DNA from: Escherichia coli
GTDB taxonomy: Bacteria; Pseudomonadota; Gammaproteobacteria; Enterobacterales; Enterobacteriaceae
Strand: one strand, 5' to 3'
Length of the DNA: 64,000 bases
Assembly (NCBI RefSeq): GCF_044324875.1
Contig: NZ_CP172185.1
Part shown: positions 8,923-57,590 of the stretch, in pieces
Layout: each line of letters opens with the position of its first letter
Numbering within the stretch: position 1 is the first letter of the stretch
Notes under the pieces: generated by a model
Told to the model about the DNA's origin: nothing
Database searches by the model: none
What the model saw: only the letters and a program-made list of their open reading frames with translations
Made by a program: the position numbers and the translations under genes

Positions 8923-10563
8923 ATGAATACAACTCCCTCACAGCGATTAGGTTTTTTGCATCACATCAGGCTGGTTCCGTTATTTGCCTGCATTCTTGGC
9001 GGTATCTTAGTTCTATTCGCATTAAGTTCAGCTCTGGCTGGCTATTTCCTCTGGCAGGCCGATCGCGATCAGCGTGATGTTACTGCGGAGATTGAGATTC
9101 GGACCGGGTTAGCGAACAGTTCAGATTTTTTGCGTTCAGCCCGGATCAATATGATTCAGGCCGGTGCTGCGAGTCGTATTGCGGAAATGGAAGCAATGAA
9201 GCGAAATATTGCGCAAGCCGAATCGGAGATTAAACAGTCGCAGCAAGGTTATCGTGCTTATCAGAATCGGTCGGTGAAAACACCTGCTGATGAAGCCCTC
9301 GACACTGAATTAAATCAACGCTTCCAGGCTTATATCACGGGTATGCAACCGATGTTGAAATATGCCAAAAATGGCATGTTTGAAGCGATTATCAATCATG
9401 AAAGTGAGCAGATCCGACCGCTGGATAATGCTTATACCGATATTTTGAGCAAAGCCGTTAAGATACGTAGCACCAGAGCCAACCAACTGGCGGAACTGGC
9501 CCATCAGCGCACCCGCCTGGGTGGGATGTTCATGATTGGCGCGTTTGTGCTTGCCCTGGTCATGACGCTGATAACATTTATGGTGCTACGTCGGATCGTC
9601 ATTCGTCCATTGCAACATGCCGCACAACGGATTGAAAAAATCGCCAGTGGCGATCTGACGATGAATGATGATCCGGCAGGTCGTAATGAAATCGGTCGCT
9701 TAAGTCGTCATTTACAGCAAATGCAGCATTCACTGGGGATGACAGTAGGGACCGTTCGACAGGGCGCGGAAGAGATTTATCGTGGCACCAGCGAAATTTC
9801 CGCTGGCAATGCGGACCTTTCATCTCGCACCGAAGAACAAGCGGCGGCAATTGAACAAACTGCCGCCAGCATGGAGCAACTCACTGCGACGGTGAAACAG
9901 AATACAGATAACGCGCATCATGCCAGCAAACTGGCGCAGGAGGCTTCTATTAAAGCCAGCGATGGCGGGCAGACGGTTTCCGGTGTAGTAAAAACGATGG
10001 GCGCTATCTCCACGAGTTCGAAGAAAATTTCCGAGATCACCGCCGTCATCAACAGTATTGCTTTCCAGACGAATATTCTGGCACTGAATGCTGCCGTTGA
10101 AGCCGCGCGAGCGGGTGAGCAAGGGCGTGGATTTGCCGTTGTCGCCAGCGAAGTACGGACACTCGCAAGCCGCAGCGCCCAGGCGGCGAAAGAGATTGAA
10201 GGCTTGATCAGTGAATCAGTCAGGTTAATTGACCTGGGGTCGGATGAGGTAGCAACGGCAGGGAAAACCATGAGCACTATTGTTGATGCCGTCGCGAGTG
10301 TCACACATATCATGCAGGAAATCGCCGCCGCCTCGGATGAACAAAGCAGAGGCATAACACAGGTTAGCCAGGCGATTTCTGAAATGGATAAGGTGACGCA
10401 ACAGAATGCTTCTCTGGTAGAAGAGGCCTCAGCGGCGGCGGTGTCCCTTGAAGAACAGGCGGCACGATTAACTGAGGCGGTGGACGTATTCCGTCTGAAC
10501 AAACATTCTGTGTCGGCCGAACCTCGCGGAGCGGGTGAACCAGTTAGATTCGCTACGGTGTGA
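8923..10563 (+). CDS. trg: methyl-accepting chemotaxis protein III (ribose/galactose)
   Basis: 546-aa ORF with two TM segments, HAMP and conserved MCP signalling domain. Confidence 0.95.
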
Positions 10564-43441: not shown

Positions 43442-43726
43442 ATGCCCTTAGCCGCCAAACTTACCGACAAAGGCACCCAGCACGACGGTTATTACGAGAC
43501 CGTCATCATCGCCGGGTCATCCACCGTTTTTATCGATGGTCTCCCCGCAGCCCGCCAGGGAGATCCGCTGACGCCGCATGCTAAACCGAAGCATCCCCCT
43601 CATCCCCGTAAAATCGCCAGAGGTTCTTCAACCGTCTTTATTGACGGTCTGCCCGCCGCCAGAAGCGGTGATGCTGTTGACTGCGGCGGCGTGGTTATCG
43701 GTGGCGGTACGGTAAATATAGGCTGA
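43442..43726 (+). CDS. PAAR-domain protein (type VI secretion spike tip)
   Basis: 94-aa ORF with two literal PAAR motifs in a duplicated segment (SSTVFIDGLPAARQGD / SSTVFIDGLPAARSGD); strong RBS aggagg. Confidence 0.8.
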   Translation: MPLAAKLTDKGTQHDGYYETVIIAGSSTVFIDGLPAARQGDPLTPHAKPKHPPHPRKIARGSSTVFIDGLPAARSGDAVDCGGVVIGGGTVNIG

Positions 43727-43744: not shown

Positions 43745-46150
43745 ATGTCCTTAAAAGGTCTTCACTTTACGCTGGAGGTTGACGGCCAGGAGCCGGACAC
43801 CTTTGCAGTGGTGCATTTCAGGTTAATCCAGAACCAGTCTTATCCGTTTGTGATGAGTGTGGATGTTGCCAGCGACTCTTTTATGCAGACGGCGGAGATG
43901 CTGCTGGAGAAGAAGGCGACGCTGACCATCTGGCAGGGCGTCATCCCGCTGCGTTATGTCACCGGCGTGGTGGCGGGTTTTGGCATGCAGGAGAACAATG
44001 GCTGGCAGATGCGTTACCACCTGCGTATCCAGCCGCCGTTATGGCGGTGCGGGCTGCGGCAGAACTTCCGTATCTTCCAGCAGCAGGATATCCGGACGAT
44101 ATCGGCCACGTTACTGAACGAGAACGGCGTCACGGAGTGGACGCCGCTGTTTTATGAGGACCATCCGGCGCGGGAGTTCTGTGTCCAGTACGGGGAGTCG
44201 GACCTGGCGTTTCTGTCCCGGCTGTGGGCGGAGGAGGGTCTTTTCTTCTTTGAGCGGTTTGCGGCGGACAGTCCGGAGCAGAAGCTGACGCTGTGCGACG
44301 ATGTGGCGGGGCTGTCACAGGCGGGGGAGTTTCCGTTTAACCCGGACACATCGGCAGGTGCGGAGACGGAGTGTGTCAGTATGTTCCGTTATGAGGCGCA
44401 TGTCCGCCCGTCATCGGTGCAGAGCCAGGATTACACCTTTAAGGTGCCGGACTGGCCGGGGATGTATGAGCAGCAGGGTGAGAACCTGAACGGACAGCTG
44501 GAGCAGTATGAGATATTTGATTATCCGGGAAGGTACAAGGATGAACAGCACGGCAAGGATTTCACGCTGTACCAGATGGAGAGCCTGCGCAGTGATGCGG
44601 AAAAGGCCACAGGGCAGAGTAATTCGCCGAAGCTGTGGCCGGGAACGCGGTTTATGCTGACGGGGCATCCGCAGAAGATGCTGAACCGTGAATGGCAGGT
44701 GGTACAGAGCATACTGTCAGGAAACCAGCCGCAGGCGCTGCACGGCAGCCAGGGAAAGGGAACCACGCTGGGCAATCAGTTAGAGGTGATACCGGCGGAC
44801 CGGACGTGGCGTCCACGGCTGCAAAACAAACCGAAGGTGGACGGGCCACAGAGCGCCATCGTCACCGGTCCTGCGGGAGAGGAAATCTTCTGCGATGAAC
44901 ATGGACGGGTACGGGTGAAGTTCCACTGGGACCGTTATCACGGGATGACGGAGGCGAGTTCATGCTGGGTGCGGGTATCGCAGGCGTGGGCGGGGCCGGG
45001 GTTCGGTAACCTGGCGATACCACGGGTGGGTCAGGAGGTGATAGTGGACTTCCTGAACGGCGACCCGGACCAGCCGATAATCATGGGGCGGACGTACCAT
45101 GAGGACAACCGTTCGCCGGGCGACCTGCCGGGAACGAAGACGCAGATGACCATCCGGTCAAAAACCTATAAAGGAAGCGGATTTAACGAGCTGCGGTTTG
45201 AAGACGCCACCAGTAATGAGCAGGTGTATATCCATGCCCAGAAGAACATGGATACGGAGGTGCTCAACGACCGGACAACGGATGTGAAACATGACCATAC
45301 GGAAACCATCGGGAACGACCAGAAGATAACGGTGGTGAAGGGGCAGACGGTTCAGGTCGGGACCAGAAAAGAAGGGGGCCACGACCAGAGTATCACGGTG
45401 GCGAACGACCGGTGCATCACGGTACGTAATGACCAGACGCTGCAGGTGACGAATGACCGGACGGTGAGCGTGAGTAATGATGACGGCCTGTACGTCAGAA
45501 ATGACCGTAAAGTGACGGTGGAAGGGAAGCAGGAGCATAAGACGACGGGGAACCATATCAGTCTGGTGGAGGGAAAGCACAGCCTGGTGGTGAAGGGGAA
45601 CCTGGCGAGGAAGGTGAGTGGCGCGCTGGGGATAAAGGTGGACGGGGATATCGTGCTGGAGAGCAGCAGCCGGATAAGCCTGAAGGTGAGTGGCTCGTTT
45701 GTGGTCATCCATTCAGGGGGCGTGGACATCGTCGGGCCGAAAATCAATCTCAATAGCGGCGGTAGTCCGGGGACGCCGGTGCCGGCGCTGCAACCGGCGG
45801 TGCTGAAGACACTGGGGGATGAGAAGAGTGGTGATGGCAGTGATTCCGGAGAAGAAAATGAAGACTCTGGAGGGAACTGCGTGACCGGAAGTGGTGGTGA
45901 TGATCGAGGTGACGATGAGGATGAACCTGAAAAATATACTCTCCAGTTCCATTTTACAGACGATGACGGGATACCGTATTCAGAAACCCGCTACATTGCC
46001 TTCTTTGAGGATGGCACGCAGACCCGCGGAGAAACGGATGAAGAGGGGTATACAGAGCGTTTTTTTGTATCTAGCAAACATGAAATTAAAGTGAAGTTGT
46101 TATTTGCGAATGATGATTTTCTCTCAATGGAAGGACACTATGGACGATAA
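43745..46150 (+). CDS. vgrG: type VI secretion spike protein VgrG with acidic C-terminal extension
   Basis: 801-aa ORF; gp27/gp5-like N-terminal region, repeat-rich beta-helix, then Asp/Glu-rich tail. Confidence 0.9.
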   Translation: MSLKGLHFTLEVDGQEPDTFAVVHFRLIQNQSYPFVMSVDVASDSFMQTAEMLLEKKATLTIWQGVIPLRYVTGVVAGFGMQENNGWQMRYHLRIQPPLWRCGLRQNFRIFQQQDIRTISATLLNENGVTEWTPLFYEDHPAREFCVQYGESDLAFLSRLWAEEGLFFFERFAADSPEQKLTLCDDVAGLSQAGEFPFNPDTSAGAETECVSMFRYEAHVRPSSVQSQDYTFKVPDWPGMYEQQGENLNGQLEQYEIFDYPGRYKDEQHGKDFTLYQMESLRSDAEKATGQSNSPKLWPGTRFMLTGHPQKMLNREWQVVQSILSGNQPQALHGSQGKGTTLGNQLEVIPADRTWRPRLQNKPKVDGPQSAIVTGPAGEEIFCDEHGRVRVKFHWDRYHGMTEASSCWVRVSQAWAGPGFGNLAIPRVGQEVIVDFLNGDPDQPIIMGRTYHEDNRSPGDLPGTKTQMTIRSKTYKGSGFNELRFEDATSNEQVYIHAQKNMDTEVLNDRTTDVKHDHTETIGNDQKITVVKGQTVQVGTRKEGGHDQSITVANDRCITVRNDQTLQVTNDRTVSVSNDDGLYVRNDRKVTVEGKQEHKTTGNHISLVEGKHSLVVKGNLARKVSGALGIKVDGDIVLESSSRISLKVSGSFVVIHSGGVDIVGPKINLNSGGSPGTPVPALQPAVLKTLGDEKSGDGSDSGEENEDSGGNCVTGSGGDDRGDDEDEPEKYTLQFHFTDDDGIPYSETRYIAFFEDGTQTRGETDEEGYTERFFVSSKHEIKVKLLFANDDFLSMEGHYGR

Positions 46151-46523
46151 TAATCAAACTTCTGGACAACCAAAGCCAGAGCCAGAAGAATGTGTGAAAG
46201 AGCAAAAAATAACTGATCATTTTAAAATAATGATTGATAAGGCTCGTAAGGCACAAAAGTTGGTTTTGATAAAAAGAGCAGATGATCTTTTGAGATGGGG
46301 AGCACAGGAGGAATATGATTTCAGTAAGATCTTTGGTGTTAAAGGAAATAAGGAGGTTAATATAAGAAAATATGGACATAATACAGGTAGGCGCATGAAT
46401 GCTAGATTTCTTATGATGGATGGTGTGAGAAGATTAATGATTATAGCTAATGATTTAACAATGAGCAGTTTTATAAATTATATGGATTTGCCCCTATATT
46501 TCCAGACATCTGTTATCACTTAA
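46140..46523 (+). pseudogene. AT-rich gene translationally coupled to vgrG (candidate T6SS cargo/adaptor), 3' end interrupted by IS2
   Basis: ATG at 46140 overlaps the vgrG stop; ORF runs into the IS2 terminal repeat at 46483; removing IS2 and one TSD copy restores a 137-codon ORF ending at 53243. Confidence 0.6.
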
Positions 46524-47059
46524 CCCATTACAAGCCCGCTGCCGCAGATATTCCCGTGGCGAGCGATAACCCAGCGCACTATGCGGATGCCATTCGTTAT
46601 AATGCTCGAACGCCTCTGCAAGGTTCTTTGCTGCCGTTAACCCGTCTGGTTTGGGCATGATACTGATGTAGTCACGCTTTATCGTTTTCACGAAGCTCTC
46701 TGCTATTCCGTTACTCTCCGGACTCCGCACCGCCGTGTTCTTCGGTTCAAGTCCCAACATCCGGGCGAACTGGCGTGTTTCATTAGCCCGGTAGCATGAA
46801 CCATTATCGTAACCGGCTCATTTAAACCGTCTGGTCTGTTTCCTCCGGCTCTACAAAAATAATGTCCATCATTTTTAATGGACACTATCGTATGAAACAC
46901 CGGACCTGGATCACTGAAGCTTTACGTCTTCACTTTGAAGAACATTTACCCCGGGTTGTGGCCGGGCGTCGCCTGGGTGTACCAAAATCAACAGTTTGTA
47001 GTATGTTCGTGCGCTTTCGGAGAGCTGGCCTTTCGTGGCTGCAAAATGGCATCTGAATC

Positions 47060-47160
47060 GATCGCAGTTTGGCATTCGAATCGATCATGATTTGGCATCC
47101 ATCTCCGATCACAGTTTGGCATCACAATCGATCACGATTTGGCATGCTTCCGATCATTGA
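47060..47160 (+). repeat. IS21-family subterminal multiple repeats (tttggcat motifs spaced about 20 bp apart)
   Basis: five or six copies of gatc...tttggcat upstream of istA; inverted copies (atgccaa) at the other end near 49640-49650. Confidence 0.6.
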
Positions 47161-47241
47161 TTGGCATCCTGCCAGTCACTCCGGGAATTAACTCTTTTCA
47201 CCACAGTCTCCATTGCCGTGTTTAAACCAGTGGAGACGTCA

Positions 47242-48807
47242 ATGTCCAGAAAGAGAAAATCCAGGAGCACTATGGAAACCTGTTTTAAGATCCTTCAGCT
47301 CAAGTTCGACAAGAAGCTGACTAACCGTTGTATCGGACTGACGTTACACATCAGCGCCTCAACCGTTTTTGAGGTTCTTGCCCGCTTCAAAGCCTCTTCT
47401 CTGTCATGGCCATTACCTGCTGATATATCCCATGACACGCTGGAGAAACTCATTTTTCCGCCCAAAGACACCTTTGCATCAGAGCTTGTAATGCCTGACA
47501 TGTTGTACTTCGATACGGAAATGAGAAAACCAGGTGTGACGCGGCAACTGTTGTGGATGGAATACAAGGCACAGGCGGGTAACAAAGCGATGGGATACTC
47601 GCACTTCTGCCGTTGCTACCGGGAGTGGAAAAAAACGCGACGTCTCTCCATGCGCCAGGAGCATCGTGCCGGCGAAAAGCTTTTTATCGACTTCTGTGGT
47701 CCTACGGTTCCTGTTATTAATCCGGACACCGGTGAGATACGCCGCGTGGCAATCTTCGTGGCCGTAATGGGGGCGTCCAACTATACCTACGTTGAAGCGT
47801 GCGAAGGTCAGGACATGATGTCATGGTTAAATGCCCACAGCCGTTGCCTGACCTTCCTGGGCGGCGTACCGAAGCTGCTCATCCCCGATAACCTCAGAAG
47901 CGCAGTGAAAAAGGCCGATCGATATGAGCCTGTCATCAACGACAGTTATCAGGCACTGGCTGAGCACTATGGCACGGTTATCATCCCGGCCCGACCACGC
48001 AAACCTAAAGATAAACCAAAAGCAGAAAACGGCGTCCTCATCGTTGAACGATGGCTTCTTGCCCGCATCCGTAATGAAACCTTCCACACGCTCAGGGCGC
48101 TGAATGCGCGCCTTAGGGAGTTACTGACAGACATGAATAACCGGCCAATGAAGGGGTACGGCAATCAAACCCGTGCAGAACGCTTCCGCATACTGGATGC
48201 GCCAGCACTCTCTCCGCTGCCTCTGGCACCTTATGAATACACGGAATACAAAGCTGTGAAGGTTGGCCCTGACTACCACGTTGAATATGCCCGTCACTGG
48301 TACTCCGTTCCACACGAACTGGTCGGTCAGCGTCTGTCACTGAAGGCGGGGCAGTCGGTGGTACAGCTCTGGCACAAGGGGCAGTGTGTGGCGCAACATC
48401 CGCGCAGCACACATGAATATAAACACACAACCAATCCGCTTCACATGCCAGAGCGCCACCGGCAGCACGGGACATGGACACCGGAACGCCTGATCGAGCA
48501 GGGAAAACGTACGGGCCCGTCCACAGGCCGGGTGGTTGAATCCATGCTGAAGGCAAAACCCCATCCGGAACTGGCTTATCGTGCAGTTCTGGGGCTGCTG
48601 GCACTTCAGAAAAAATACGGCCCGGAACGGCTGGAAAAGGCCTGTTACGTTGCCCTGCACTATAACGCCCCTGACAGACGCTTTATCGACAATCTGCTGC
48701 GTCACCATCGGGAGAACCTGGAGCTTCCATTATCCCGCCAGGGCGAACAACATCCGGCATATGCTTCAGAGCATGAAAACCTGCGTGGTCCGGGCTACTA
48801 CCACTGA
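47242..48807 (+). CDS. istA: IS21-family transposase IstA
   Basis: about 521 aa from MSRKRKS with N-terminal HTH and integrase-like core; ORF track begins at 47161. Confidence 0.85.
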   Translation: MSRKRKSRSTMETCFKILQLKFDKKLTNRCIGLTLHISASTVFEVLARFKASSLSWPLPADISHDTLEKLIFPPKDTFASELVMPDMLYFDTEMRKPGVTRQLLWMEYKAQAGNKAMGYSHFCRCYREWKKTRRLSMRQEHRAGEKLFIDFCGPTVPVINPDTGEIRRVAIFVAVMGASNYTYVEACEGQDMMSWLNAHSRCLTFLGGVPKLLIPDNLRSAVKKADRYEPVINDSYQALAEHYGTVIIPARPRKPKDKPKAENGVLIVERWLLARIRNETFHTLRALNARLRELLTDMNNRPMKGYGNQTRAERFRILDAPALSPLPLAPYEYTEYKAVKVGPDYHVEYARHWYSVPHELVGQRLSLKAGQSVVQLWHKGQCVAQHPRSTHEYKHTTNPLHMPERHRQHGTWTPERLIEQGKRTGPSTGRVVESMLKAKPHPELAYRAVLGLLALQKKYGPERLEKACYVALHYNAPDRRFIDNLLRHHRENLELPLSRQGEQHPAYASEHENLRGPGYYH

Positions 48808-48823
48808 CAGAAGGAACAACAGT

Positions 48824-49579
48824 ATGAGTGATAACCTGTTAAACAAACTGACCCAACTGAAACTCCCGGCGATGGCCGGGAGCCTGATACGGCAGCGGGA
48901 AACGCCTCAGACCTACGACGAACTGTCGTTCGAGGAAAGGCTGACGCTGCTGGTTGATGACGAGCTTCTGAGCAGGGAAAACAGCCGTGTGGCACGGTTG
49001 AGAAAAAATGCCGGCCTGAAATACCAGGCAACACCGGAAGGGCTGCGCTATCCGGCCTCAAGAGGTCTGCGGGCTGAACAGATGAGAGAACTGCTGAACG
49101 GCCACTACATAACCCACAGGAAAAACCTGCTGATAACCGGTCCGACAGGATGTGGCAAGAGCTGGATAGCCAATGCGCTGGGCGAACAGGCATGTCGACA
49201 GAAACACAGCGTCCGGTACTGTAGAACCGGGCGATTACTGGAACAACTGGCTCAGGGACGTGTTGATGGCAGCTGGCTGAAATATCTGAAACAGTTGCAA
49301 AAAATACAGGTTCTAATCCTGGACGATCTGGGGCTGGAACAGTTAAGTAACGCCCAGTGTAATGACCTTCTGGAGCTCATAGAGGATCGTTACGGACAAA
49401 GCAGCACGATAGTGGTAAGCCAGTTCCCGGTAGATAAATGGCATGGTCTGATGGAGAACCCAACAACAGCAGATGCCATCCTGGACAGACTGGTACATAA
49501 CTCACACCGAGTGGTCCTTCAGGGAGAGTCACTGAGGAAAAATCCCCCGGTAGTGGAAAGCAGCGAAAAAACGCGTTAA
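48824..49579 (+). CDS. istB: IS21-family ATP-binding helper IstB
   Basis: 252-aa ORF with Walker A GPTGCGKS and Walker B LILDDLG. Confidence 0.9.
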   Translation: MSDNLLNKLTQLKLPAMAGSLIRQRETPQTYDELSFEERLTLLVDDELLSRENSRVARLRKNAGLKYQATPEGLRYPASRGLRAEQMRELLNGHYITHRKNLLITGPTGCGKSWIANALGEQACRQKHSVRYCRTGRLLEQLAQGRVDGSWLKYLKQLQKIQVLILDDLGLEQLSNAQCNDLLELIEDRYGQSSTIVVSQFPVDKWHGLMENPTTADAILDRLVHNSHRVVLQGESLRKNPPVVESSEKTR

Positions 49580-50182
49580 AAAGCGGTAGAAAAAGTTAAG
49601 TTCCCGGTTGATCGAATGGATGCGAATCGCTGATCGGACTTCGATGCCAATCCGTGATCGAATAGAGCGGAATACGCAGTGGCCTTTGCCCGCAGGCATG
49701 TCGGAGCAGGAACTTGATGCCTGCCTTTACGGACAATTTTCCACGGTACCAGTCGTACGTCCTGAAAGCACCGTTATATCCGAAGCCCCCGTGGTAAAAA
49801 AACGTCCCCGGCGGCCCAACTTCCCTTATGAGTTTAAAATCGCCTTAGTGGAGCAGTCACTGCAGCCCGGAGCCTGTGTGGCGCAGATCGCCCGGGAAAA
49901 CGGAATCAACGATAACCTGCTCTTCAACTGGCGCCATCAATACCGGAAAGGTGGCCTGCTGCCTTCCGGAAAAAATATGCCGGCACTGCTTCCCGTGACG
50001 TTAACGCCGGAGCCGGATAATAAAATCCCGGCCCCCGCACAGGAACCAGAGCAGATAAATACACCGTCCGACAGTCTGTGTTGTGAGCTGGTTCTGCCGG
50101 CCGGAACTCTCAGGCTTAAAGGTAAACTGACGCCGGCGTTATTACAGACACTTATCCGCGAAATAAAAGGGAGCAGCCACTG

Positions 50183-50530
50183 ATGATATCTCTCCCTGCA
50201 GGTTCGCGTATCTGGCTGGTTGCAGGTATCACCGATATGCGAAATGGCTTTAACGGCCTGGCATCAAAAGTTCAGAACGTCCTGAAGGATGACCCGTTCT
50301 CCGGACACCTGTTCATCTTCCGCGGACGCCGGGGTGACCAGATAAAAGTGTTGTGGGCTGACAGTGACGGACTGTGCCTCTTCACCAAACGCCTGGAGCG
50401 GGGCCGCTTCGTCTGGCCAGTCACCCGTGACGGCAAGGTGCACCTTACTCCGGCTCAGTTATCCATGCTTCTTGAAGGTATCAACTGGAAGCACCCGAAA
50501 CGAACGGAACGCGCTGGAATCCGCATATAA
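50183..50530 (+). CDS. IS66-family TnpB (orf2)
   Basis: 115-aa ORF recognised as IS66 family Orf2. Confidence 0.85.
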   Translation: MISLPAGSRIWLVAGITDMRNGFNGLASKVQNVLKDDPFSGHLFIFRGRRGDQIKVLWADSDGLCLFTKRLERGRFVWPVTRDGKVHLTPAQLSMLLEGINWKHPKRTERAGIRI

Positions 50531-50549
50531 CCCGTTGTAAAGTGAGGAT

Positions 50550-52121
50550 ATGGACACCTCACTTGCTCATGAGAACGCCCGCCTGCGGGCACTGTTGCAG
50601 ACGCAACAGGACACCATCCGCCAGATGGCTGAATACAACCGCCTGCTCTCACAGCGGGTGGCGGCTTATGCTTCCGAAATCAACCGGCTGAAGGCGCTGG
50701 TTGCGAAACTGCAACGTATGCAGTTCGGTAAAAGCTCAGAAAAACTTCGTGCAAAAACCGAACGGCAGATACAGGAAGCACAGGAGCGAATCAGCGCACT
50801 TCAGGAAGAAATGGCGGAAACGCTGGGTGAGCAATATGACCCGGTACTGCCATCCGCCCTGCGCCAGTCTTCAGCCCGTAAACCGTTACCGGCCTCACTT
50901 CCCCGTGAAACCCGGGTTATCCGGCCGGAAGAGGAATGCTGTCCTGCCTGTGGTGGTGAACTCAGTTCTCTGGGATGTGATGTGTCAGAGCAACTGGAGC
51001 TTATCAGCAGCGCCTTTAAGGTTATCGAAACACAACGTCCGAAACAGGCCTGTTGCCGGTGCGACCATATCGTGCAGGCACCAGTACCTTCAAAACCCAT
51101 TGCACGCAGTTATGCCGGAGCGGGGCTTCTGGCCCATGTTGTCACCGGGAAATATGCAGACCATCTGCCGTTATACCGCCAGTCAGAAATATACCGTCGT
51201 CAGGGAGTGGAGCTGAGCCGTGCCACACTGGGGCGCTGGACAGGTGCTGTTGCTGAACTGCTGGAGCCGCTGTATGACGTCCTGCGCCAGTATGTGCTGA
51301 TGCCCGGTAAAGTCCATGCTGATGATATCCCCGTCCCGGTCCAGGAGCCGGGCAGCGGTAAAACCCGGACAGCCCGGCTGTGGGTCTACGTCCGTGATGA
51401 CCGTAACGCCGGTTCACAGATGCCCCCGGCGGTCTGGTTCGCGTACAGTCCGGACCGGAAAGGTATCCATCCACAAAATCACCTGGCCGGTTACAGCGGT
51501 GTGCTTCAGGCCGATGCTTACGGTGGTTACCGGGCGTTATACGAATCCGGCAGAATAACGGAAGCCGCGTGTATGGCTCATGCCCGGAGAAAAATCCACG
51601 ATGTGCATGCAAGAGCGCCCACCTACATCACCACGGAAGCCCTGCAGCGTATCGGTGAACTGTATGCCATCGAGGCAGAGGTCCGGGGCTGTTCAGCAGA
51701 ACAGCGTCTGGCGGCAAGAAAAGCCAGAGCCGCGCCACTGATGCAGTCACTGTATGACTGGATACAGCAACAGATGAAAACACTGTCGCGTCACTCAGAT
51801 ACGGCAAAAGCGTTCGCATACCTGCTGAAACAGTGGGATGCACTGAACGTGTACTGCAGTAATGGCTGGGTGGAAATCGACAACAACATCGCAGAGAACG
51901 CCTTACGGGGAGTGGCCGTAGGCCGGAAAAACTGGATGTTCGCGGGTTCCGACAGCGGTGGTGAACATGCGGCGGTGTTGTACTCGCTGATCGGCACATG
52001 CCGTCTGAACAATGTGGAGCCAGAAAAGTGGCTGCGTTACGTCATTGAACATATCCAGGACTGGCCGGCAAACCGGGTACGCGATCTGTTGCCCTGGAAA
52101 GTTGATCTGAGCTCTCAGTAA
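50550..52121 (+). CDS. IS66-family transposase TnpC (orf3)
   Basis: 523-aa ORF with leucine-zipper N-terminus, CxxC zinc motif and IS66 DDE core. Confidence 0.85.
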
Positions 52122-52151
52122 ATATCAATACGGTTCTGACGAGTCGCTTAC

Positions 52152-52750
52152 CCATTATCCGTCAGCCACTCCACTGGAGACGACGGAAGATCGTTGCCGA
52201 AGCGGCGTTCCACCGCTCCCAGCATGACGTCCTGTACTGTTTCACTGTTGAAGCCGCCGGTAGTGACCGCCCAGTGCAGTGCCTCACGATCACAGCAGTC
52301 CAGCGCGAACGTGACACGCAGTCTCTCTCCGTTATCACAGCAGAACTCGAACCCGTCAGAGCACCATCGCTGATTGCTTTCTTTCACGGCCACTCTGCCT
52401 GTATGTGCCCGTTTCGATGGCGGTACAGCAGGTTTTCGCTCAAGCAACAGCGCATTCTGGCGCATGATCCGGTAAACACGTTTGGCATTGATCGCAGGCA
52501 TACCATCAAGTTCTGCCTGTCTGCGAAGCAGCGCCCATACCCGACGATAACCATACGTTGGCAGCTCTCCGATAACATGGTGTATACGGAGAAGCACATC
52601 CGTATCATCAGTGTGACGACTGCGGCGGCCATCCATCCAGTCATCGGTTCGTCTGAGAATGACGTGCAACTGCGCACGCGACACCCGGAGACAACGGCTG
52701 ACTAAGCTTACTCCCCATCCCCGGGCAATAAGGGCGCGTGCGCTATCCAC
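52152..52750 (-). pseudogene. insD: IS2 insD, N-terminal two-thirds, truncated by the IS66-family insertion (C-terminal part at 46494-46808)
   Basis: translation recognised as IS2 InsD up to ...VEWLTDNG, where the IS66-family end begins. Confidence 0.85.
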
Positions 52751-53073
52751 TTTTTTGCCCGTCCATATTCAACGGCTTCTTTGAGGAGTTCATTTTCCAT
52801 CGTTTTCTTGCCGAGCAGGCGCTGGAGTTCTTTAATCTGCTTCATGGCGGCAGCAAGTTCAGAGGCAGGAACAACCTGTTCTCCGGCGGCGACAGCAGTA
52901 AGACTTCCTTCCTGGTATTGCTTACGCCAGAGAAATAACTGGCTGGCTGCTACACCATGTTGCCGGGCAACGAGGGAGACCGTCATCCCCGGTTCAAAGC
53001 TCTGCTGAACAATTGCGATCTTTTCCTGTGTGGTACGCCGTCTGCGTTTCTCCGGCCCTAAGACATCAATCAT
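52708..53073 (-). CDS. insC: IS2 InsC (orfA)
   Basis: 121-aa ORF from [18 protein letters not shown] recognised as IS2 InsC. Confidence 0.9.
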
Positions 53074-53310
53074 CTGTTCTCCAATGACTAGTCTAAAAAC
53101 TAGTATTAAGACTATCACTTATTTAAGTGATACTGGTTGTCTGGAGATTCAGGGGGCCAGTCTATTATACAGGTTGTAATGAATTTGCAGCATTCGTCAG
53201 CCCAAGTAAGGATATGCCCTATATAATTAACATAGGAATTTGAGTATAGAGATGGCAAAAAAAATCCAGTAACGGGAAAGGATTCTCATGTTGCTACTTT
53301 ATGTCATGAA

Positions 53311-53613
53311 ATGTCTCATATTCAGTGGTATTATGGGGATAATAAAAAAGGTGGTATGTGGTCACAGGATTATACAACTACTGATAAATATTCAACGTGC
53401 AAAGAGGATGAAGTTTCATATGACGAACATATCCGTATTGCAACTAAACTGATCTCTAAACAAAAAGATCAAATATTCGAGAATGCATATAACATAGAAA
53501 GATATTTTGAAATAAGATTAATTGAAAGTGAGATAGACTCGATTAATGATGAAATATTAAGCAATTCAGTTAAGAAAAAAATAGCGGAATTAGAAAAAGC
53601 ACTTCTCCATTAA
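53311..53613 (+). CDS. hypothetical protein (100 aa), AT-rich
   Basis: ORF in the AT-rich segment between IS2 and the H-repeat fragment. Confidence 0.3.
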   Translation: MSHIQWYYGDNKKGGMWSQDYTTTDKYSTCKEDEVSYDEHIRIATKLISKQKDQIFENAYNIERYFEIRLIESEIDSINDEILSNSVKKKIAELEKALLH

Positions 53614-53636: not shown

Positions 53637-53900
53637 ATGCTGCAAGCTATAAAAAAAATCATAATAATGACAATCGTAAATATTATATTTTTCTATTCCT
53701 TTCAATCGACTGCGGATGAAATGGTTTTAATAAAAAAATACGGGTTTGGGCTTGAGAGAGATATCAAAGGAAGGCCATTAATTTATCCTATCGAAAATTA
53801 TGATGAGTGTAAGAAAAAATGCAATCATATGAATTATATAGCGGATGTCAATGCTCAATTAGCTATGAGTAAAAAAATAACAGGATTTTTGCTAACATAA
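53637..53900 (+). CDS. hypothetical small exported protein (87 aa), AT-rich
   Basis: N-terminal hydrophobic signal-like segment ending STA, cysteines in the mature part. Confidence 0.35.
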   Translation: MLQAIKKIIIMTIVNIIFFYSFQSTADEMVLIKKYGFGLERDIKGRPLIYPIENYDECKKKCNHMNYIADVNAQLAMSKKITGFLLT

Positions 53901-53953
53901 CCTTTACTAACAATAGCTCTACCACGTATTTTTTTTCTAAATATTACCTACCT

Positions 53954-54457
53954 ATGAAAGTAAAAGATGGAAAAGGAGATGAATATGATGCGATATGCAA
54001 AAAACCATTCAGAATCAACTCTGGGAATATCACGTTGGACTACTTAGGTGGTTCATGTCCTTTTGAAATTAATACGAATCCTGAACGGTGGAATACTATT
54101 AAACCAGGTCGTAGTTTTTTGTTGAGTATAACCTTAAATGATATGTATGCCTTTATACCAGGAGATAATTATTATTTTATAAAATCATCTGGCTATAAAT
54201 TTGTTAATGACAAGTGGTTTACACTCAAATCAATCAATAATATTTTTCTTTATTTTTTAAATTTAAAAATTAATTGTGCTGATGATTTTTTTGATATTAA
54301 TAATTTTACTACATGTGATAATTTGTTATTAGATGAAAAAAAACACTTTTTTATTAATCAGTTATGGGCAATTGAGGATGAAAAAAATTCTATTTACGTC
54401 ACCCCTGATGAAATTTCTATAAGTATAGACGGCGATAACTTAAAGTTGCCATATTAG
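53954..54457 (+). CDS. hypothetical protein (167 aa), AT-rich
   Basis: ORF ending immediately before the H-repeat fragment. Confidence 0.35.
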   Translation: MKVKDGKGDEYDAICKKPFRINSGNITLDYLGGSCPFEINTNPERWNTIKPGRSFLLSITLNDMYAFIPGDNYYFIKSSGYKFVNDKWFTLKSINNIFLYFLNLKINCADDFFDINNFTTCDNLLLDEKKHFFINQLWAIEDEKNSIYVTPDEISISIDGDNLKLPY

Positions 54458-54476: not shown

Positions 54477-54965
54477 GTGCGCCGCTTTTTTGTACTAAAT
54501 AATTCGCATTTTAGTCACGGCAGAGAAGAAATCCATCTTCATATTGTTTGCGATGTCCCTGATGAACTTATTGATTTCACGTTTGAATGGAAAGGTCAGA
54601 AGAAATTATGCGTGGCAGTCTCCTTTTGGTCAATAATAGCAGAACAAAAGAAAGAGCCAGAAATGACGGTCAGATATTATATCAGTTCTGCTGATTTAAC
54701 CGCAAAAAAGTTCGCCACAGCGATACGAAATCACTGGCACGTGGAGAATAAGCTGCACTGGCGTCTGGACGTGGTAATGAACGAAGACGACTGCAAAATA
54801 AGAAGAGGAAACGCCGCAGAATTATTTTCAGGGATACGGCACATCGCTATTAATATTTTAACGAATGATAAGGTATTCAAGGCAGGGTTAAGACGCAAGA
54901 TGCGAAAAGCAGCTATGGACAGAGACTACCTCGCGTCAGTCCTTGCGGGGAGCGGGCTTTCGTAA
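54477..54965 (+). pseudogene. H-repeat-associated (ISAs1-family) transposase, C-terminal fragment, 5'-truncated
   Basis: ...[46 protein letters not shown]... matches the C-terminus of H-rpt proteins such as YdcC; N-terminal part absent. Confidence 0.75.
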
Positions 54966-55073
54966 TCTTGCCCTGGCGATCGAATAGCGCAGATGACGGT
55001 GCTCTAAATTTGAATCTAATAAGCCGGTGTTATTTTTCATCCACTATTAAAATCTTGACACAACGAGGCAACA

Positions 55074-55535
55074 ATGAAAAAAAGCAAAAAAATTAAAACA
55101 ATGAACCATCAAAATAATAGCGGGATACAAAATCAACCAGACTATCACATCGAAATAGAAAGAAAAAATATGGTAAGATTGCTTGATGAACGTATTGATA
55201 AAGTTTACGGTTCATTGCTAGGACCAATGAAAAAGAAAAATATAGATAAAATACGTCATTTTACACTTGATGTAATGGTGTTTATTCTTGACACGAACCC
55301 TCGTGTTTGTAATAAATTATCCAGGGAAATAATATCTTTAGCGCAAAATACCTTCATTGAAAAAAACGTTAATTTTTCAACTTTTAATAATGAACAGCAT
55401 AGAATAAGGGAGTATATGAATGAAGTGGTGGAATACGATGGTTTACATGGGATAACCCCGAGATATCTTTTGTTCGTGCATCTTTTGGCCTTTTTGTCAA
55501 AATGGAAACAAAAGGTGATCATGAACATACACTAA
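55074..55535 (+). CDS. hypothetical protein (153 aa), very AT-rich
   Basis: ORF with no recognisable motif. Confidence 0.3.
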   Translation: MKKSKKIKTMNHQNNSGIQNQPDYHIEIERKNMVRLLDERIDKVYGSLLGPMKKKNIDKIRHFTLDVMVFILDTNPRVCNKLSREIISLAQNTFIEKNVNFSTFNNEQHRIREYMNEVVEYDGLHGITPRYLLFVHLLAFLSKWKQKVIMNIH

Positions 55536-55992
55536 GTGACACATTTCTTCAGATTGTTGAGTGTGTTAATTTAAATATAGGACTTATTGCAAAAGATGAA
55601 CTGGTAAAAATCATCAATAAACACTTTATGTAAAAATATACTTCTGTATGAAGTTATAATAATACAGTGAAAATCATCAAATTATTAATTAATGATGCTC
55701 TTTGTTATTATTTACTTTTTACAATTGAATCAGGGGTTTTATTTTCTGTAGTAAAGTTGTATTTTTGCTAAAGGTGATAAAGTACAGGTGTTTATATTAA
55801 ATTAGAACTCCCCTTAATTATCATAAATACAAAGAGGTGAAAACATGCGGGGGTGTTTTCGTTAAATAATACCATGGTGAATTAATAACATGCTATCAGT
55901 GATATACATATTTTCTCTAACAAAGTTTTAGTAAAATTACGCGTAGTAAGAAGATTCCGCCAAAGATTCCATATAATAATATTAAGGTTGTT

Positions 55993-56628
55993 ATGAATAA
56001 AGGTAATAGATTACAACAGTTAGAAGATGCGTGTCGTGATATTATTAAAATTAACATGTGGTATGAACTCCCCGATTATGTATTTTTTTCAATATCTGAC
56101 ACCATCGATGGGACGAGTGATGAATTCGCAATAAATGTGTATAAAAATATCGATAAAAGTCTTCTTGAAATATTATTGCATCCATCTGTTTTACTGTCAG
56201 TTGTTGAGTCCTTACAAAGTAATACTATAGCTGAGTATATCGTGAAATTGTCTGAAATAGAGATGAATTATGACGACTTGCTAATATCGGATGTTAAATC
56301 ATGTCTTTTTATCAACTATGGATTCAATAACAGTGAATCGGTTGCGCTATTTAATAAGATTTACCGCGAATTAAAAGATATTGTAAAATCATCAAGAGTA
56401 CATATAGATCATGAGAAAGATATTTTTGATGGCCTTAATCAAATCTTGGCTTTTTCCGATAATAATAAACATGAGTATTTTTTATATATAAAGGCATATT
56501 GGCTCAGTTTATACTTTTGTGAAATTTCACAGAACGTGAGAGAAAGAGATAAGTTGTCATTTTATTATAATGAATTTTCTGTCCGATTTCCTAATGTTGT
56601 CCTATATCCGTCATGCTACAAATTGTAA
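55993..56628 (+). CDS. hypothetical protein (211 aa), very AT-rich
   Basis: ORF with no recognisable motif. Confidence 0.35.
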   Translation: MNKGNRLQQLEDACRDIIKINMWYELPDYVFFSISDTIDGTSDEFAINVYKNIDKSLLEILLHPSVLLSVVESLQSNTIAEYIVKLSEIEMNYDDLLISDVKSCLFINYGFNNSESVALFNKIYRELKDIVKSSRVHIDHEKDIFDGLNQILAFSDNNKHEYFLYIKAYWLSLYFCEISQNVRERDKLSFYYNEFSVRFPNVVLYPSCYKL

Positions 56629-57020
56629 GGCTTGGCACCTGAAATTCATTGTTAATTCGAGACGCTTGATTGTCCACTATATCAAAACAGTCATACCTCG
56701 GAATTTTCTCGCATTAGTCCATACGGTATTCAATATTCGCAACTGTGCCCTGAAATAAAAAACTGCAAAACTGCTTTTTCTTGACCTGTCCCAATCACGC
56801 AAGACTACTTTTAGTAGAGACCTCCAGCTATGTCGATTTTAGTGCCGCCCGCGCATTTTATACAAAACAGGGCTTTATTAATGAAGCTATAATACGCAAT
56901 TACTATGATGTTGGTGAGGATAAATTAATCTTCACTAAAAATATGCAATCGTGAGATAAAATATGCTTTTAACTCATATTGAAACATTGCTTAAGCAACT
57001 TGGTTGCTGCATATGATTCT

Positions 57021-57590
57021 TTAGCCCGCGGTGACTCGCTTGCCGCTGGTAACAAACGTGCCAGCACCTAAGTGATGTAGTGTATTGAGTTTATCATCAT
57101 CAAACTGCCAGCGGCCTTCGACAAATACCCGTGCGTCTGCCGCTGCTGATACCACCTCGCCAAACAGCGTGTCGTATTTTTCTTGTGCGGAAGTCGCAGG
57201 TAGCAAGCGACACTCCATCCATGCCAGACATTTTTCTTCAACAAGTGGCAAACCAAGCACCGGACCTTTCACCACCGGAATGCCATAGCAATTAAATTTA
57301 TCCTCTTCACGCCCCGAAACACTTCCCACCGCCCACGTCCAGTTAGTCGCTGCAACGCCCGGGATAACGATGCCAAATTTACCGTTACGTTCAATCAACT
57401 CCCTGGTCCATGTCGATTTATCTACCACAATCGCCACACGTGGCGGTTCAAACTCTACCGGCATTGACCAGGCCGCAGCCATAAGGTTACGCCGCTGAGA
57501 TTGATCATCGAAACTGGTTATCAAAACTGTAGGGCCGTGGTTTAACAGACGGCTGGCATGATGCAACTCGACGGAGATAAATCGGCTCAC
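57021..57590 (-). CDS. yddH: flavin-reductase-like protein YddH
   Basis: 189-aa ORF recognised as YddH. Confidence 0.85.
   Translation of the reverse strand: MSRFISVELHHASRLLNHGPTVLITSFDDQSQRRNLMAAAWSMPVEFEPPRVAIVVDKSTWTRELIERNGKFGIVIPGVAATNWTWAVGSVSGREEDKFNCYGIPVVKGPVLGLPLVEEKCLAWMECRLLPATSAQEKYDTLFGEVVSAAADARVFVEGRWQFDDDKLNTLHHLGAGTFVTSGKRVTAG

Follow-up and report, generated by a model that had tools for sequence, protein, structure and literature searches.

Two AT-rich genes beside yddH in Escherichia coli as probable orphan immunity genes of polymorphic-toxin systems

In a 64,000-nucleotide stretch of Escherichia coli DNA (contig NZ_CP172185.1 of assembly GCF_044324875.1; hereafter the window), the place taken by pptA in strain K-12 is occupied by two AT-rich genes on the same strand, here called open reading frame (ORF) 1 and ORF2, which are annotated in RefSeq as 'hypothetical protein' only. 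What do these genes encode, and do they belong together? A preliminary description of the locus regarded them as a horizontally acquired two-gene module of unknown function, and proposed to look for a defence or toxin-immunity context around their homologues. The analysis reported here points, with a probability of roughly 80%, to ORF1 and ORF2 being unrelated orphan immunity genes of polymorphic-toxin systems, i.e., of type VI secretion system (T6SS) and Rhs effectors. The two same-strand frames of 153 and 211 amino acids (aa) described earlier are both found at their positions, but the 153-aa frame is part of a frameshifted 186-aa gene. The features concerned are the following.

55074..55634, + strand: ORF1, frameshifted pseudogene copy of a 186-aa putative orphan immunity gene (WP_000748591.1 in E. 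coli 042), split in the window into 55074-55535 (153 aa) and 55502-55633
~55424-55425, + strand: site of a 1-bp deletion in ORF1, GAAGGTGG to GAAGTGG by comparison with 042; one G is missing
55635..55992, no strand: spacer between ORF1 and ORF2, 358 bp, 27% GC, without recognisable feature
55993..56628, + strand: ORF2, intact 211-aa putative orphan immunity gene (WP_001032567.1); predicted type of cognate toxin, EndoU (PF14436)

The evidence that carries this reading is the position of the homologues, which in other genomes directly follow interbacterial toxins on the same strand. Relatives of ORF2 are encoded straight after an EndoU-type RNase toxin domain (EndoU_bacteria, PF14436) in four independent contexts.

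Pseudocitrobacter faecalis (L003-L005): ORF2 homologue, 63% identity; gap of 17 bp to the preceding EndoU_bacteria ORF, upstream of which are DUF2169 and Tox-PAAR-like genes
Shigella flexneri (L016): ORF2 homologue, 53% identity; gap of 16 bp to the preceding EndoU remnant of 88 aa
GCA_040560315.1 (L020): ORF2 homologue, 32% identity, 15 bp after a Pyocin_S+EndoU ORF
Metagenome contig (L023): ORF2 homologue, 26% identity, 10 bp after an EndoU ORF, with Rhs fragments nearby

The EndoU domains of these four contexts align as one subfamily, and the S. flexneri remnant is 71% identical to the Pseudocitrobacter toxin. The Pyocin_S+EndoU ORF is situated within an array of toxin/immunity cassettes that includes a Colicin_D/Colicin_immun pair, while the cassette of the metagenome contig is found again in L022. 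The EndoU partners of ORF2 are thus carried by PAAR-like/DUF2169 proteins and by Pyocin_S-type cassettes, with one copy amid Rhs gene fragments. An additional homologue (59% identity) is present in Escherichia albertii (L006, 9111-12114), between cusS and nfrB. This is an unrelated chromosomal site and a toxin-free orphan context, where the gene is surrounded by other small ORFs without annotation, of which two were judged by eye to be very hydrophobic.

Homologues of ORF1 accompany a different toxin. They are located 3 bp downstream of Rhs C-terminal toxins in four contexts (L008, L010/L011, L009/L012 and L014/L015). In Citrobacter portucalensis, the homologue follows a 1481-aa VgrG/DUF2169-linked Rhs protein at this distance. 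In E. coli draft genomes, an orphan Rhs C-terminal fragment of 440 aa precedes it by 3 bp, or else a shorter remnant of that toxin end. On metagenome contigs, homologues follow a toxin end that is 71% identical to the one of the E. coli drafts. In three diverged copies of the toxin end the motif C-A/S-E...C-x-x-C is invariant, which agrees with the zinc-binding H/C-x-E ... C-x-x-C motif expected of a nucleic-acid deaminase. Known deaminase toxins of polymorphic-toxin systems include the YwqJ-like clade (PF14431) and DddA of the DddA/DddI pair (PDB 6u08). As in DddA, the toxin follows the DPxGL end of the Rhs core. The similarity to 6u08 is nevertheless confined to the Rhs-core junction and does not extend to the toxin domain, and when the alignment of the Rhs C-terminal domains was used as a profile against PDB, no deaminase was retrieved, only spurious pentapeptide-repeat matches. 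Unlike known deaminase toxins, the ORF1 partner matches the YwqJ deaminase (independent E-values of 9.7e-4 to 0.011) and dCMP_cyt_deam_1 (6.4e-3 to 0.06) families below their thresholds. From its motif and these matches, the toxin is only probably a deaminase. In the orphan region of the E. coli Rhs locus with an ORF1 homologue, a gene of the SymE_toxin family was also observed (L009/L012, 8090-8401).

In the window itself, no trace of either cognate toxin was detected over the full 64 kb by tblastn or by a six-frame hidden Markov model (HMM) search at maximum sensitivity. The same two approaches (tblastn and six-frame HMM search) revealed no toxin remnant in the spacer at 55635-55992. When 5,426 complete E. 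coli genomes were searched by BLASTN with toxin and immunity gene together, only the immunity part was matched, in 237 genomes for ORF2 and in 186 for ORF1, and no toxin DNA was found beside the immunity genes, the sensitivity of this search at DNA level being roughly at least 65-70% identity. At that sensitivity, ORF1 and ORF2 are always orphans in complete E. coli genomes. Since toxins are missing from the window as well as from the vicinity of the genes in all these genomes, both are best read as orphan immunity genes. For the strain under study, it may be inferred that the cognate toxins are absent genome-wide.

These numbers also show that the segment is accessory, being present in 186-237 of the 5,426 genomes, and to this extent the idea of acquired DNA was borne out. 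Full-length copies are found in 193 (ORF2) and 186 (ORF1) genomes. About 7 genomes have a full-length ORF2 and no ORF1 match, and in about 44 only the last 250 bp (3′ end) of ORF2 are left. Away from the E. coli yddH locus, the families never occur together, their homologues being found singly, and the description as one module is not supported.

Both families are small. ORF2 is represented by 17 clusters in a set of 5.8 billion proteins, and even a profile search retrieved only 16 representatives from 1.84 billion. For ORF1, about 10 clusters were found. Between diverged homologues of ORF1 and ORF2, the ratio of nonsynonymous to synonymous substitution rates (dN/dS) ranges from 0.11 to 0.33, which indicates that both families are real, constrained coding genes rather than frames without coding conservation. 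For ORF2, dN/dS is 0.12-0.29 between diverged members and 0.50 between two close E. coli alleles. The AlphaFold2 models are all-helical for both proteins, with a predicted local distance difference test (pLDDT) score of 88 and a predicted template modelling (pTM) score of 0.85 for ORF2, and a pLDDT of 75 for ORF1, so that the folds range from confident to moderately confident.

Sequence and profile searches placed neither protein in a known family, and a literature search returned no paper on WP_000748591.1 or WP_001032567.1. Neither Pfam (at E<=10) nor NCBIfam contains a match to ORF2, nor is any PDB chain similar to it in sequence, and Foldseek gave no significant neighbour for its model (top match E=0.54, template modelling score 0.24). 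Matches to Phage_min_tail, lipoamide dehydrogenase and deoxyribose-phosphate aldolase were dismissed as chance-level. Some RefSeq and UniRef records of ORF2 homologues (e.g., NZ_CP149815.1 and NZ_CP043414.1) bear the name 'aminopeptidase', which was supported by none of the searches and is apparently a misannotation passed on between records.

CdiA-CT/CdiI of E. coli STEC_O31 is an EndoU toxin/immunity pair, and ORF2 relatives resemble the immunity genes of such pairs in directly following a PF14436 domain. Tox-EndoU has been linked to SUKH, Imm-SuFu or Imm28 immunity proteins (Zhang et al., 2012, PMC3482391). In Pfam-A and NCBIfam, ORF2 does not match these EndoU-linked families (SUKH/SMI1_KNR4, Imm-SuFu, Imm28). 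Because ORF2, unlike known EndoU pairs, is without a Pfam family, PDB chain or significant Foldseek neighbour, its family appears, judging by sequence and predicted fold, to be separate from the classified EndoU immunity families.

A number of observations weigh against the assignment of both genes as immunity genes. It is drawn from gene position. Neither protein has a Pfam, NCBIfam, PADLOC or PDB match or belongs to a curated immunity family, and the fold searches gave generic helical matches only. For ORF1, sequence and fold searches detected no resemblance to known immunity proteins, which also sets it apart from the immunity partners of known deaminase toxins. The deaminase matches of its partner stay below Pfam trusted levels, and the toxin search in E. 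coli was done with DNA. For the expression of ORF2, a promoter and terminator scan found promoter-like sites no commoner than in shuffled sequence.

Supposing that the assignment is correct, the mode of action can be predicted from what is established for other polymorphic toxins and their immunity proteins (Zhang et al., 2012, PMC3482391; Poole et al., 2011, PMC3150448). Each product would be a small, cytoplasmic, all-helical protein that binds and blocks its own cognate toxin. The copies in the window would be leftovers, the toxins of which were lost by cassette displacement, ISAs1 insertion or deletion. Intact ORF2 could still shield the cell from EndoU toxins injected by competitors, or be a relic.

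How far decay has proceeded bears on this choice. The segment of E. coli 042 (L001), like that of many complete genomes, is identical to window 54900-57100 except for one base that is absent from the window. This is the G missing from ORF1, the loss of which shifts the reading frame after codon 117 and removes the C-terminal third, the best-conserved part of the family. As the G is present in 186/186 complete E. coli genomes that carry the segment, with ORF1 intact in all of them, the deletion is private to this strain. Barring a sequencing error at this base, ORF1 is a pseudogene in the window.

The two genes are situated at the tail of a PAAR-VgrG T6SS accessory island in the rhsE/yncG-yddH hotspot. 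Its genes and those at the borders of the segment are as follows.

43442-43726, + strand: PAAR gene, co-linear with 042 (RefSeq 'type VI secretion system PAAR protein')
43745-46150, + strand: VgrG gene, co-linear with 042 (RefSeq 'TssI/VgrG')
46140..53610, + strand: VgrG-linked 'peptidase M35' effector gene, split into two parts, 46140-46481 and 53160-53610, by tblastn with the M35 protein of 042
47161-49579: IS21 istA/istB, part of the insertion sequence (IS) block in the M35 effector
49608-52121: IS66 element, part of the same block
52148-53118, - strand: truncated IS2, part of the same block
53637..54457, + strand: gene following the effector; its 042 version has 273 aa, the N-terminus of which looks hydrophobic and similar to a signal peptide (by eye)
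54477..54965, + strand: ISAs1-family (H-repeat) transposase fragment, left border of the variable segment (RefSeq in 042: 'ISAs1 family transposase, incomplete')
57021..57590, - strand: yddH (flavin reductase family), conserved right border, annotated in 042 and K-12

The M35 effector is interrupted by a composite IS block of 6.7 kb (46482-53164), and its 3′ part has an extra 5-bp deletion at about 53236 compared to 042. The 273-aa gene, which has no NCBIfam match and may encode the immunity protein of the M35 effector, is frameshifted as well, A9 having become A8 at about 53870. Over window 36221-64000, three indels in coding sequence distinguish the window from 042, each of them in an island gene (M35 effector, 273-aa gene and ORF1) and none in the flanking housekeeping genes. 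This favours real island decay over random sequencing error, which was considered as the cause of the frameshift and is disfavoured for that reason, and the private ORF1 deletion fits a decay that affects the whole island, with its IS-split effector and frameshifted neighbour.

A comparable state is found at the same chromosomal locus in another E. coli lineage (GCA_054117995.1, hereafter L017), where ORF1 is frameshifted too, independently and at another site. Identity between the window and L017 is 92% over the whole ORF1-ORF2 segment and 84% in the spacers. In this part of L017 (6181-8663), there is no PAAR or VgrG gene between yncG and yddH but just a row of small ORFs without annotation (108 aa and 128 aa), followed by ORF1, ORF2 and an intact GNAT gene, and the locus may be a bare immunity-only array.

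It is quite conceivable, although short of probable, that ORF1 and ORF2 are immunity genes by descent that have become functionless relics on their way to loss and protect from nothing. The different frameshift sites of ORF1 in the window and L017, the truncation of ORF2 to its 3′ end in dozens of genomes, the disrupted island genes next to it, the failure of BLASTN to detect DNA of the cognate toxins next to the genes in complete E. coli genomes and the raised dN/dS of 0.50 between close ORF2 alleles are all in line with this. On the other hand, full-length copies persist in the 193 and 186 complete genomes mentioned above, and cognate toxins exist in Pseudocitrobacter, Citrobacter and rare E. 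coli drafts. The presence of these toxins in other gut Enterobacteriaceae makes a selective agent plausible. By analogy with known immunity proteins, present-day protection of the cell by ORF2 would have at best an even chance. The fuller proposal is put forward tentatively and is, taken as a whole, rather doubtful: ORF2 would found an unclassified, structurally distinct, all-helical EndoU immunity family, the toxin-less copy of which (about 3.5% of complete E. coli genomes have it intact) would give acquired cross-protection against T6SS EndoU effectors of gut Enterobacteriaceae, e.g., Pseudocitrobacter.

Alternatively, the two proteins could be accessory factors of the toxins, i.e., chaperones, adaptors or activators. 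Their tight linkage to toxin genes would agree with such a role, as would their all-helical structure, which some T6SS chaperones share. However, the T6SS adaptors DUF2169 and DUF4123 are encoded upstream of effectors, and that slot is already filled in the same loci. Moreover, the slot directly after the toxin domain, repeated in arrays beside Colicin_D/Colicin_immun, is the canonical immunity position, and persistence as an orphan without toxin suits immunity rather than delivery. This explanation is therefore very improbable. Hardly any credence is left for a single acquired functional module, such as a toxin-antitoxin or anti-phage defence pair: although ORF1 and ORF2 are adjacent, on the same strand, alike in AT-richness and found together beside yddH in the L017 lineage and 186 complete E. 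coli genomes, the families are separate elsewhere and beside different toxins, a spacer of 358 bp lies between the genes, ORF1 is independently broken in the window and L017 while ORF2 is intact, ORF2 occurs full-length without ORF1 or as a 3′ end only in the genomes listed above, and neither protein matches any PADLOC model (0 defence families in PADLOC-DB at E<=1), which goes against the suggested anti-phage context.

The reading as orphan immunity genes can be compared to known systems. Orphan rhs-CT/rhsI and cdiA-CT/cdiI modules have been described downstream of Rhs and contact-dependent inhibition (CDI) loci in Enterobacteriaceae (Poole et al., 2011, PMC3150448; Koskiniemi et al., 2014, PMC3967940). 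In the window, small AT-rich genes likewise follow a VgrG/Rhs locus where K-12 has rhsE, close to H-repeat (ISAs1) elements, and their homologues directly follow polymorphic toxin C-terminal domains. Unlike in those modules, immunity genes alone remain, without a toxin C-terminal fragment before either of them, and the main effector of the island is the VgrG-linked M35 peptidase instead of an Rhs protein.

Poly-immunity or orphan-immunity arrays are a feature of T6SS auxiliary clusters, with examples in Vibrio cholerae and Bacteroidales. As in such arrays, the vgrG cluster ends here in toxin-less genes of immunity type that differ from lineage to lineage. The differences are that only two genes are present, one of which is broken, and that the locus showed no mobile-element machinery of its own for the array. 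A poly-immunity cluster of Stenotrophomonas is also described in a preprint (bioRxiv 10.64898/2026.07.13.738213).

Orphan immunity genes are nothing out of the ordinary, but the two protein families concerned are uncharacterised. What is gained is a reasoned function, with a specific toxin type, for two 'hypothetical proteins' of 042-like strains (WP_000748591.1 and WP_001032567.1). If ORF2 does protect against EndoU toxins, it would be a small, testable case of orphan immunity shaping competition among gut Enterobacteriaceae, and would add a new immunity family for EndoU RNases. Otherwise, the genes are an expected feature of the rhsE/vgrG hotspot and the understanding of such systems is unchanged.

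Concerning the locus itself, the gene order in K-12 is rhsE-ydcD-yncI-ydcC-pptA-yddH. Window 54976-56987 stands in place of a 287-bp pptA segment of K-12 (blastn), and pptA has no match anywhere in the 64-kb window (tblastn), in agreement with the earlier observation that the gene is missing before yddH. On the left, the H-repeat fragment is 95% identical to the 3′ end of K-12 ydcC, the K-12 match spanning window 54513-54976. On the right, K-12 homology picks up again at 56987 (blastn), and the flank past the variable segment contains yddH, nhoA, yddE and narV. The segment consists of two same-strand genes with 30% GC each, compared to 49% for the whole window, and the last 53 codons of a GNAT acetyltransferase. 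The leaders measure 108 bp for ORF1 and 358-457 bp for ORF2, so that the very AT-rich DNA with long leaders noticed at first is real. No Rfam RNA family was found in 54800-57200.

The remaining feature of the segment is the short ORF end at about 56850-56955, the resemblance of which to a GNAT C-terminus was confirmed.

56793..56954, + strand: GNAT acetyltransferase remnant, codons 103-155 and stop of a 155-aa gene, by alignment with L017

The 57-aa ORF at 56781-56954 matches the C-terminal end only of the rimI model (E=2.6e-4), and in-frame stop codons lie directly upstream of the remnant. In L017 the gene order is ORF1, ORF2, an intact 155-aa GNAT gene (8957-9424, Pfam Acetyltransf_1) and yddH. 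By blastn, L017 7013-8799 corresponds to window 55004-56795, and L017 from 9263 onward to the window from 56793. This break in the alignment points to a 463-bp deletion in the window, which took GNAT codons 1-102 and the upstream spacer. The deleted stretch includes the acetyl-CoA-binding motif A (consensus R/Q-x-x-G-x-G/A), which in the intact protein of L017 reads RQGVG at residues 85-89, and the stub is therefore a pseudogene, a remnant rather than a functional member of the family.

About 660 of the 5,426 complete genomes, among them Nissle 1917, share the piece at 56793-57020, for which they have no annotation. In Nissle 1917 (L013, 8472-9227; 94.7% identity), it was observed that B2 strains have only the GNAT stub beside yddH. 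A shorter ISAs1 fragment and a 71-aa hypothetical gene replace ORF1 and ORF2 before the stub, which is located downstream of a similar PAAR-VgrG-M35 island.

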